The notes under the pieces are model-generated. The model made no database searches. It saw nothing but the letters and a program-made list of their open reading frames with translations, and was not told the DNA's origin. Positions 18,684 to 18,838 of a stretch of 64,000 nt of DNA are shown here, one piece after another. The stretch is taken from the NCBI GenBank assembly GCA_051294905.1, contig CM119371.1, positions 7,938,001 to 8,002,000 on the forward strand, written 5' to 3'. The stretch's first letter is position 1; each line of letters begins with the position of its first letter. Made by a program: the position numbers and the translations under genes. Source of the stretch: Botryllus schlosseri. Lineage: Eukaryota.

Positions 18684-18767
18684 TTTGATATGTCTGTAAT
18701 AAAATCGCAAAACAACTACGGCTCCTCATTCGTGTTCTAGTCAGATACAGCATCAATAGAAAAGTCG

Positions 18768-18838
18768 TGGAGACTACGGGAATTGAACCCGTATCTTCTA
18801 TTTGCAAGACAGATACTCTACCATTGAGCTAAGTCCCC
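18768..18838 (-). tRNA. trnA: tRNA-Ala(UGC) encoded inside the Polinton
   Basis: Folds by hand into a full cloverleaf: acceptor GGGGACT/AGTCTCC with G3:U70, D-stem GCTC/GAGT, anticodon stem TCTGT/ATAGA with loop CT-TGC-AA, T-arm ACGGG-TTCAATT-CCCGT, discriminator A; TTTT terminator 4 nt downstream. Confidence 0.93.

Follow-up and report, generated by a model that had tools for sequence, protein, structure and literature searches.

The window, a stretch of 64,000 nucleotides from Botryllus schlosseri contig CM119371.1, contains an intact Polinton/Maverick element that encodes, besides its replication, packaging and capsid genes, a gene for tRNA-Ala (Table 1). The element is flanked by perfect terminal inverted repeats of 214 nt and by a target-site duplication of the 6-bp length typical of Polintons, and the frames for its ATPase, integrase and capsid and for its probable polymerase and protease are open, from which it follows that the element is both intact and recent. 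It is thus a young, animal-type Polinton (adintovirus-like) and has probably been mobile not long ago. GC content is the same in the element as in its flanks. The tRNA gene lies approximately 2 kb inward of the right terminal inverted repeat, in agreement with a first-pass annotation of the locus, which had described it as Polinton-encoded. Outside the element, the window holds few long open reading frames (ORFs) and one decayed LTR retrotransposon, which fits an intron-rich eukaryotic chromosome.

Table 1 Features of the Polinton and of its tRNA-Ala gene. Positions are numbered from the first nucleotide of the window.
Feature	Position	Strand	Basis
Target-site duplication CAGGGT, left copy, 6 bp	1517..1522		read in sequence
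Polinton/Maverick, intact, 19,311 bp, contains the tRNA gene	1523..20833		terminal inverted repeats, target-site duplication, gene set
Left terminal inverted repeat, 214 nt, starts AG (AGTAGT...)	1523..1736		100% complementary to 20620-20833
BIR (inhibitor-of-apoptosis) domain cargo gene	3513..3866	-	Pfam BIR, E 5.7e-11
DNA polymerase B, protein-primed type, probable, divergent class, 1288 aa	6885..10751	+	Atlas clusters, motifs
A32-like packaging ATPase	10780..11400	+	Pfam Pox_A32, E 2.2e-9
Retroviral-type integrase with C-terminal chromodomain	12291..13295	+	Pfam rve (PF00665), E 8.8e-13; Chromo, E 3.8e-11
Major capsid protein, double jelly-roll type	15423..16700	+	UniRef-named relative, Atlas clusters
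Adenain-like maturation protease, probable	16697..17158	+	homology to ORF 5486-6055 of metagenomic locus L001
Caspase-like (Peptidase_C14) cargo gene	17516..18256	+	Pfam, E 1e-12
113-aa ORF, no family assigned, converging on the tRNA gene	18342..18683	+	ORF list
T4 run, candidate Pol III terminator, 4 nt past the discriminator base	18760..18763	-	read in sequence
tRNA-Ala(UGC) gene, 71 nt	18768..18838	-	ARAGORN; Rfam; cloverleaf fold
B box GGTTCAATTCC of tRNA-Ala	18789-18779	-	read in sequence
A box TAGCTCAATGG of tRNA-Ala	18831-18821	-	read in sequence
E2 ubiquitin-conjugating enzyme gene	18949..19428	-	Pfam UQ_con, E 4.3e-47
Right terminal inverted repeat, 214 nt, closes CT (...ACTACT)	20620..20833		100% complementary to left arm
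Target-site duplication CAGGGT, right copy, 6 bp	20834..20839		read in sequence

Several of the core genes were assigned through distant homologues. For example, the capsid protein is related to a protein of the limpet Patella caerulea that is named 'Major capsid protein' in UniRef (P0003; 29% identity, E = 1.1e-40), and its nearest Atlas clusters scored 0.98, with DJR-like_dom recorded on 24% and 14% of the members in two of the three clusters shown; Arthropoda and Echinodermata were the commonest taxa recorded in the clusters shown. For the polymerase, 19 of the best 30 Atlas clusters fall in the DNA_pol_B_2 set (scores 0.95-0.97; eukaryotic), and exonuclease and polymerase motifs (FDFES, NSARYDLN, KMCGNSAFG and LDTDS) are legible in its translation. 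Pfam gave no match of this protein to PF03175 at E ≤ 1, and a sequence search of the PDB gave none. It probably belongs to the divergent class of polymerases that PMC8502044 describes in adintoviruses. The protease identity of ORF 16697-17158 is probable and weaker than the other gene assignments: Pfam gave no direct match to this ORF, its homology is to ORF 5486-6055 of a metagenomic relative described below (24% identity, E = 2e-14), and the Peptidase_C5 match of that relative is itself weak and below the cut-off (E = 0.0029).

The tRNA-Ala(UGC) gene is genuine and complete, with eukaryotic Pol III type-2 signals. ARAGORN reported a single tRNA in the 64-kb window, a minus-strand tRNA-Ala (anticodon tgc, 18767-18838), and the Rfam model RF00005, for which the gathering score is 29, aligned along its entire length (positions 1-71) to 18838-18768 with 73.4 bits (E = 3.5e-14). 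This was the sole Rfam family match in the window, and a search of 1400-21000 at E ≤ 1 returned no RNA family besides tRNA. When the 71-nt RNA was folded, its minimum-energy structure was a cloverleaf (z = -2.85; 3 of 200 shuffled sequences were equally stable). Rfam, ARAGORN and the minimum-energy fold therefore agree on the complete 71-nt cloverleaf that had been proposed from inspection; the range proposed with it, 18760-18838, comprises the tRNA gene and its terminator, and the strand, which had been left unstated, is minus.

The Rfam alignment places G1-C72, G2-C71 and G3:U70 in the acceptor stem (GGGGACU/AGUCUCC) and A73 at the discriminator position, and it also recovers U8, A14, G18G19 and U33. 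The anticodon occupies 18806-18804, the T loop reads UUCAAUU, the variable region is 4 nt long and the gene has no intron. G3:U70 is the major determinant recognised by alanyl-tRNA synthetase, and together with A73 and an alanine anticodon it completes the alanine identity set at 18768-18838, so that the match of G3:U70 and A73 to the UGC anticodon, pointed out in the first-pass annotation, can be read directly in the alignment. Beyond A73 the sequence continues with CGAC and then TTTT (18763-18760), and CCA is therefore absent from the DNA. Four T residues are enough to terminate Pol III in animals, and both internal boxes were recognised by the A box and B box consensus. With internal boxes, an oligo-T run and an unencoded CCA, all of which had been called earlier and all of which were read again in the sequence, the locus has the layout of a eukaryotic nuclear tRNA gene.

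A gene of this kind could in principle be foreign to the biology of the element, either as a tRNA-derived SINE, as a pseudo-tRNA or as a host insertion private to one copy. The probability of this is considered negligible. The window has a single copy of the 71-mer, also when up to 3 mismatches are tolerated; no direct repeats flank it within 18600-19000, where every short repeat has one copy inside the tRNA itself; and the flanking sequence on its 3′ side contains no SINE tail, the terminator following after 4 nt. From the single occurrence, the lack of a flanking repeat and the lack of a tail it is concluded that the gene is not a SINE, as the earlier statement that it has no SINE tail or target-site duplication implied, and a score of 73.4 bits argues equally against a pseudo-tRNA. 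As a candidate, the tRNA-derived SINE was rejected, with no body, tail or target duplication at the locus and a single copy in the window.

Sister copies in other sequencing runs argue against a private insertion. At least part of the stretch 17400-20000 was found in 20 listed runs, which represent 13 studies and carry five organism codes plus marine metagenome, and at least half of its sampled words were found in 15 runs; none of the 20 listed runs is an RNA run. Four runs, including X6, X10, the bulk RNA run X22 and the single-cell RNA run X24, were aligned to 17400-21100. The X6 contig piece, which covers 17400-19201, differs from the window by 4 substitutions (17447, 17455, 17964 and 19117) and a 1-nt deletion at 18872, while the X10 piece, which covers 18409-19745, has seven substitutions (18711, 18739, 19202, 19477, 19558, 19643 and 19644) and the same deletion at 18872. 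Both of these contig runs come under other organism labels, and each has a contig that reads across the tRNA gene with 0 differences within 18768-18838. Contigs that traverse the gene unbroken and with its sequence unchanged speak against a private insertion or a SINE, and also suggest that the sequence is not high-copy, since a high-copy repeat would normally break contigs. In addition, the X10 flank after 20835 is unlike that of the window, and neither X6 nor X10 has any depth past 20871; the differing flank indicates that the tRNA gene travels with the Polinton to another genomic place. The first-pass annotation had seen its own reading as endangered by a SINE match, by absence from sister elements or by a pseudo-tRNA score. 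As far as these were checked, the gene is not a SINE, is present in both sister copies examined and scores far above the pseudo-tRNA range.

The sister copies are only about 0.2-0.5% divergent from the window. The intergenic stretch around the gene has 3 variable sites in 194 non-tRNA bases versus 0 in 71 tRNA bases, and at so small a distance the unchanged tRNA sequence is no sign of selection.

Within the element, a gap of 265 nt separates the stop codons of the plus-strand ORF 18342-18683 and the minus-strand E2 gene. The tRNA gene lies in this gap, with E2 on the same strand as the tRNA and directly upstream of it. A plus-strand AATAAA (18698-18703) lies 15 nt past the stop of ORF 18342-18683, and on the minus strand two AATAAA signals, starting at 18887 and 18880, follow the E2 stop, placing the start of the tRNA gene at 18838 some 42-49 nt downstream of the E2 signals. 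The gene had earlier been described as sitting between convergent polyA sites; this holds in so far as AATAAA signals occur on either side, but the setting is not common to the distant relatives described below.

The single-cell run X24 shows low-level transcription of the right arm of the element, approximately 3% of the run having yielded 12 second-mate reads, and the Polinton is therefore not wholly silent. Most of these reads fall at 18888-19383, over the 3′ portion of E2, with a few farther right; if the usual 3′-tag chemistry was used, their direction would fit a minus-strand E2 message ending near the AATAAA. The bin containing the tRNA gene had 0 reads in X24, single-cell libraries not being expected to capture tRNAs, and the bulk RNA run X22 had 0 reads anywhere on 17400-21100 and is hence uninformative.

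A collection of 5.8 billion proteins contained only 10 capsid relatives at E ≤ 0.001, the two closest of which (P0001, 71% identity; P0002, 47% identity) are both on short contigs. A metagenome scan with the three closest capsid sequences as queries gave four loci (L001-L004) at 25-27% capsid identity. L001 has the gene order of the window, namely an rve-chromo integrase, three ORFs, the capsid gene and a protease-like ORF, so that the chromodomain integrase is common to both. Each of the three loci that extend past the capsid gene encodes a tRNA-Met (anticodon CAT; 70-71 bits) followed by a T5 run, the fourth locus stopping within the capsid gene and being left out of this count. The tRNA-Met gene lies on the coding strand, 28 nt past the protease-like ORF, and its start is approximately 30 nt from an upstream AATAAA, which itself overlaps the stop codon of the preceding ORF; the ORFs that adjoin it all run in the same direction as the tRNA. 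At the DNA level the four loci are 95-97% identical to one another and so count as one lineage.

Carriage of a tRNA gene was thus found in both (2/2) of the independent lineages of the capsid clade that were inspected, with differing specificity and relative orientation. The first-pass annotation had proposed a scan of other Polintons for tRNAs; among the relatives scanned here, 3/3 loci that reach past the capsid gene have a tRNA, but one for methionine and on the other relative strand. From these two differences it appears that the tRNA-Ala described here and the tRNA-Met of the relatives were probably gained separately and do not represent one conserved feature. As a rough background, 13 unrelated E2-bearing viral contigs (approximately 166 kb) had no tRNA gene (0/13); these were selected on E2 (25-47% E2 identity), several are labelled giant-virus bins, and they are not relatives of the element. 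The IMG/VR viral contigs contained no capsid relatives when queried with the window protein, a 3-sequence alignment, a distant alignment or the L001 capsid, no exact match to the 22-mer formed by the T-arm and acceptor of the tRNA-Ala, and nothing that fitted a tRNA-Ala pattern in which the stem positions were left free.

The carriage and anatomy of the gene are observed; its transcription, processing, charging and benefit can be proposed from the sequence as follows. TFIIIC and TFIIIB would bind the internal boxes and so enable transcription by host RNA polymerase III, the transcript would be trimmed by RNase P and RNase Z, host enzymes would add CCA, and the host alanyl-tRNA synthetase would charge the product through G3:U70. 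The charged tRNA-Ala would then enter the tRNA pool while the genes of the element are translated. Under this proposal the gene is a resident cargo gene that supplies or backs up the tRNA pool when the element is expressed, a reading with about an even chance of being right, and rated the likeliest because the gene is perfect in all the elements needed for charging and because the same explanation is favoured for related viruses. Such a supply would be general rather than a remedy for one rare codon, as has been proposed for the tRNAs of virophages, polinton-like viruses and giant viruses. The tRNAs of giant viruses and phages likewise have a full cloverleaf with identity elements and are presumed to feed translation. 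Those of phages are expressed from bacterial promoters and are often arrayed, as opposed to the single gene found here, which would rely on the internal promoters of host Pol III.

Compensation for codon usage found no support as the reason for the gene. Across the 19 ORFs of the element, 264 codons specify alanine and 74 of them (28%) are GCA; A is equally frequent (28%) over the third positions of all four-fold degenerate codons, and the GC content matches that of the flanks. GCA is therefore not enriched: the first-pass annotation had suggested comparing GCA usage between virus and host, and the comparison made here, within the element, yielded no signal. For the relatives, the tRNA is one for methionine, so synonymous codons cannot be its reason.

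The lack of GCA enrichment is also what would be expected if the gene were a neutral passenger, that is, a host tRNA gene captured recently and still intact since the family is young, quite possibly transcribed but of no benefit. The near identity of the examined copies, in which no selection is visible, fits this equally well, and the endogenous polinton-like elements of dinoflagellates, whose tRNA types are widely scattered in the rows available from Table S12 of PMC12220804, give the impression of haphazard acquisition. However, the element is compact, and within the 265-nt gap the tRNA sits snugly between two polyA signals and brings no additional DNA of the host with it. Moreover, an intact, high-scoring tRNA is present in the second, distant lineage, whose gene order is the same, as opposed to none in the 13 unrelated viral contigs. 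A neutral passenger is accordingly considered unlikely, though it retains appreciable weight.

Position rather than product is at the centre of a further explanation, in which the gene would act in cis and the bound TFIIIC, TFIIIB and Pol III would matter instead of the RNA. The complex would block Pol II read-through, the spread of heterochromatin or both, and it would prevent antisense and double-stranded RNA between the converging gene blocks. Yeast tRNA genes serve as barriers and as Pol II roadblocks, and the chromodomain integrases of chromoviruses direct insertion towards heterochromatin. At the present locus the tRNA gene occupies the gap between convergent plus- and minus-strand units just past the E2 AATAAA signals; the tRNA of the relatives likewise starts shortly past an AATAAA; and chromodomain integrases are encoded in both lineages. 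It is these shared traits, the integrase and the position just past a polyA signal, that make a boundary attractive, and the convergent setting, absent in the relatives, where the neighbouring ORFs are co-oriented with the tRNA, that weakens it. In addition, any intergenic gap of a compact genome adjoins a polyA signal, and a boundary would not require a tRNA that is perfect in every identity element. A cis-acting role is therefore regarded as rather improbable. The wider proposal that Polintons with a chromodomain integrase, which may for that reason insert into silent chromatin, keep a tRNA gene of any specificity as a Pol III/TFIIIC boundary, which would end the Pol II transcription of its neighbour and shield the element from heterochromatin, is distinctly improbable, although it would account for two lineages with different tRNAs (Ala and Met), as the DNA-bound complex would matter and the amino acid would not.

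Besides translation support and an insulator, the first-pass annotation had considered a decoy of RNA sensing resembling the adenovirus VA RNAs. VA RNAs and the TMERs of gammaherpesviruses are, like the tRNA-Ala gene, Pol III units with A and B boxes in the genome of a DNA virus. By analogy, a Pol III gene in a virus-like DNA element with BIR, caspase-like and E2 cargo might produce a VA-RNA-like or TMER-like regulatory RNA, or tRNA-Ala halves, that blunt RNA sensing or translation control. VA RNAs are structures of approximately 160 nt that are not tRNAs, and TMERs, which are not charged, consist of a tRNA-like head with miRNA hairpins attached to it. In contrast, the gene described here encodes an orthodox, canonical tRNA with an immediate terminator, reached after 4 nt, and no downstream hairpin: the downstream 168 nt are no more stable than shuffled sequence (z = +0.80; 160 of 200 shuffles fold equally well), and the element matched no other RNA family. 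The full alanine identity set and the lack of excess structure in the downstream 168 nt thus argue against a TMER-like or VA-RNA-like product, nothing in the sequence speaks for the VA-like decoy, and a regulatory or decoy RNA of any of these kinds is considered highly improbable.

Transfer RNA genes have been published for several related groups of viruses, and the novelty claimed for the gene in the first-pass annotation, which knew of no standard description for Polintons, is to that extent overstated. As far as the available text of these sources extends, tRNA genes, with Met(CAT) and Gln as prominent types, occur in 18 virophage genomes of high quality and in another 12 virophage sequences, one virophage clade being dominated by methionine (CAT) tRNAs (PMC6905037), and 8300 genomes of polinton-like viruses and virophages gave 558 Rfam tRNA matches (PMC12220804). 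In the supplementary workbook of the latter study, 'tRNA-Ala' occurs 55 times, the accessible rows being those of Table S12 and all coming from two dinoflagellates; only 27 of the elements in that study are from opisthokonts (Table S6), and the available text of its tRNA table does not contain 'Opisthokonta'. Compensation for codon usage or for the tRNA pool, or capture from the host, has been proposed for the tRNAs of these groups (PMC12220804, PMC6905037), and 'predicted tRNA genes' are marked on some MELD viruses, those with other replicases, according to the legend of Figure 6 in PMC8502044. The part of the novelty that stands concerns animal-type Polintons: a literature search combining Polinton, Maverick or adintovirus with tRNA or Pol III, with subscription journals and figures outside its coverage, found no tRNA described in one.

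A close parallel is with the polinton-like viruses and virophages, in which, as here, a single tRNA lies among the genes of a capsid-encoding, integrating eukaryotic DNA element of 15-40 kb (PMC12220804, PMC6905037, as far as available), and the Met (CAT) tRNA of virophages recalls that of the L001 lineage (PMC6905037). However, according to the same partial sources, these viruses are protist-associated and mostly lack the pair of protein-primed polymerase and retroviral integrase, whereas the Polinton described here has terminal inverted repeats, a 6-bp target-site duplication, a probable protein-primed DNA polymerase B, an rve-chromo integrase and an animal-type capsid. In gene content, with the polymerase and protease as probable assignments, it resembles the adintoviruses and MELD viruses, which are animal-associated and combine PolB, integrase, capsid, ATPase and protease with variable accessory genes; the mention of tRNAs for that group concerns replicases other than the adinto type (PMC8502044, in its available text). 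With regard to cargo, 'apoptosis', 'caspase' and 'BIR' do not appear in the main text of that paper as available, and its two passages on 'ubiquitin' concern OTU and UCH proteases and not an E2. With the tRNA-Ala gene, the carriage of tRNA genes that was reported for protist relatives is seen in an animal-type Polinton as well.

Polintons stand at the root of several groups of eukaryotic DNA viruses, and little has been learned about how they express their genes in the cells of animals. With a Pol III gene of its own, an element of this type would be able to draw on a second polymerase system of its host, and tRNA reads specific to the element would offer an assayable sign of activity for a given Polinton. 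If carriage of tRNA genes proves common in this capsid clade, a pattern known from protist viruses and virophages would reach the Polintons of animals, and the clade would provide a clean test between virus-borne tRNAs that serve translation and tRNA genes that serve as boundaries of chromatin or transcription.

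Three cargo genes of the Polinton relate to cell death and ubiquitin; they encode a BIR domain protein, a caspase-like protein and an E2 ubiquitin-conjugating enzyme of divergent sequence (table). The adintovirus paper (PMC8502044) does not use the terms 'apoptosis', 'caspase' or 'BIR' in its main text, where 'ubiquitin' occurs in two passages, which concern OTU and UCH proteases and not E2. Several relatives of the E2 (P0020, P0042, P0118, P0119 and P0120) are borne on contigs of 19.5–21.6 kb, and because this is the size of a whole Polinton, their distribution suggests that E2 is a recurrent cargo of Polinton-type elements.

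Features of the window and of related metagenome loci.
Feature	Sequence	Position	Strand	Detail
BIR (IAP-type) domain protein	window	3513-3866	-	
Caspase-like Peptidase_C14 protein	window	17516-18256	+	
E2 ubiquitin-conjugating enzyme, divergent	window	18949-19428	-	best database identity 59%
Decayed LTR-retrotransposon pol and gag region	window	25455-29836	-	ORFs for integrase, RT and zinc knuckle, fragmented across reading frames
tRNA-Met(CAU)	L001	6084-6156		
tRNA-Met(CAU)	L003	2311-2383		
tRNA-Met(CAU)	L004	5214-5286		

The gap between the BIR gene and the divergently oriented ORF at 4543-6132 holds two repeats of a 130-nt unit (3922-4178, 86% match), which make it a candidate promoter or regulatory region common to both. 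The polymerase (6885-10751) was unmatched in Pfam and PDB sequence searches. It contains a weak C2H2 finger (residues 294-316) and a weak endonuclease-like stretch (residues 797-871; phrog_13076, E 0.0029), and one protein cluster of equal length in the Atlas resource mixes DNA_pol_B_2 (27%) and Endonuclease_7 (25%) annotations. Outside the element, the decayed LTR-retrotransposon lies about 5 kb to the right.

The tRNA-Met(CAU) genes of the related metagenome loci L001, L003 and L004 combine features in an unusual way, having a U discriminator and an anticodon stem closed by three G-C pairs, but an ordinary TUC-type T loop. Relative to L001, the L004 gene has a T-stem change from U-A to U-G, which keeps the pairing, as well as one change in the T loop.

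Sequencing runs from 13 studies, under five organism codes and a marine metagenome, contain nearly identical copies of the right arm of the element (17400-21100), with differences of a few per thousand. One such run under another organism label, X10, has a form without 597 nt (20128-20726), the gap being bounded by a 43-nt TIR-internal motif present at 20129-20171 and again at about 20726-20768 (compare inverted pair I5 of the window). This form is a deletion variant of the element's right sub-terminal region. The flank differs in at least one of the right-arm copies and, together with their near-identity across organism codes, this points either to recent spread, by infection or horizontal transfer, or to a single organism common to many samples.
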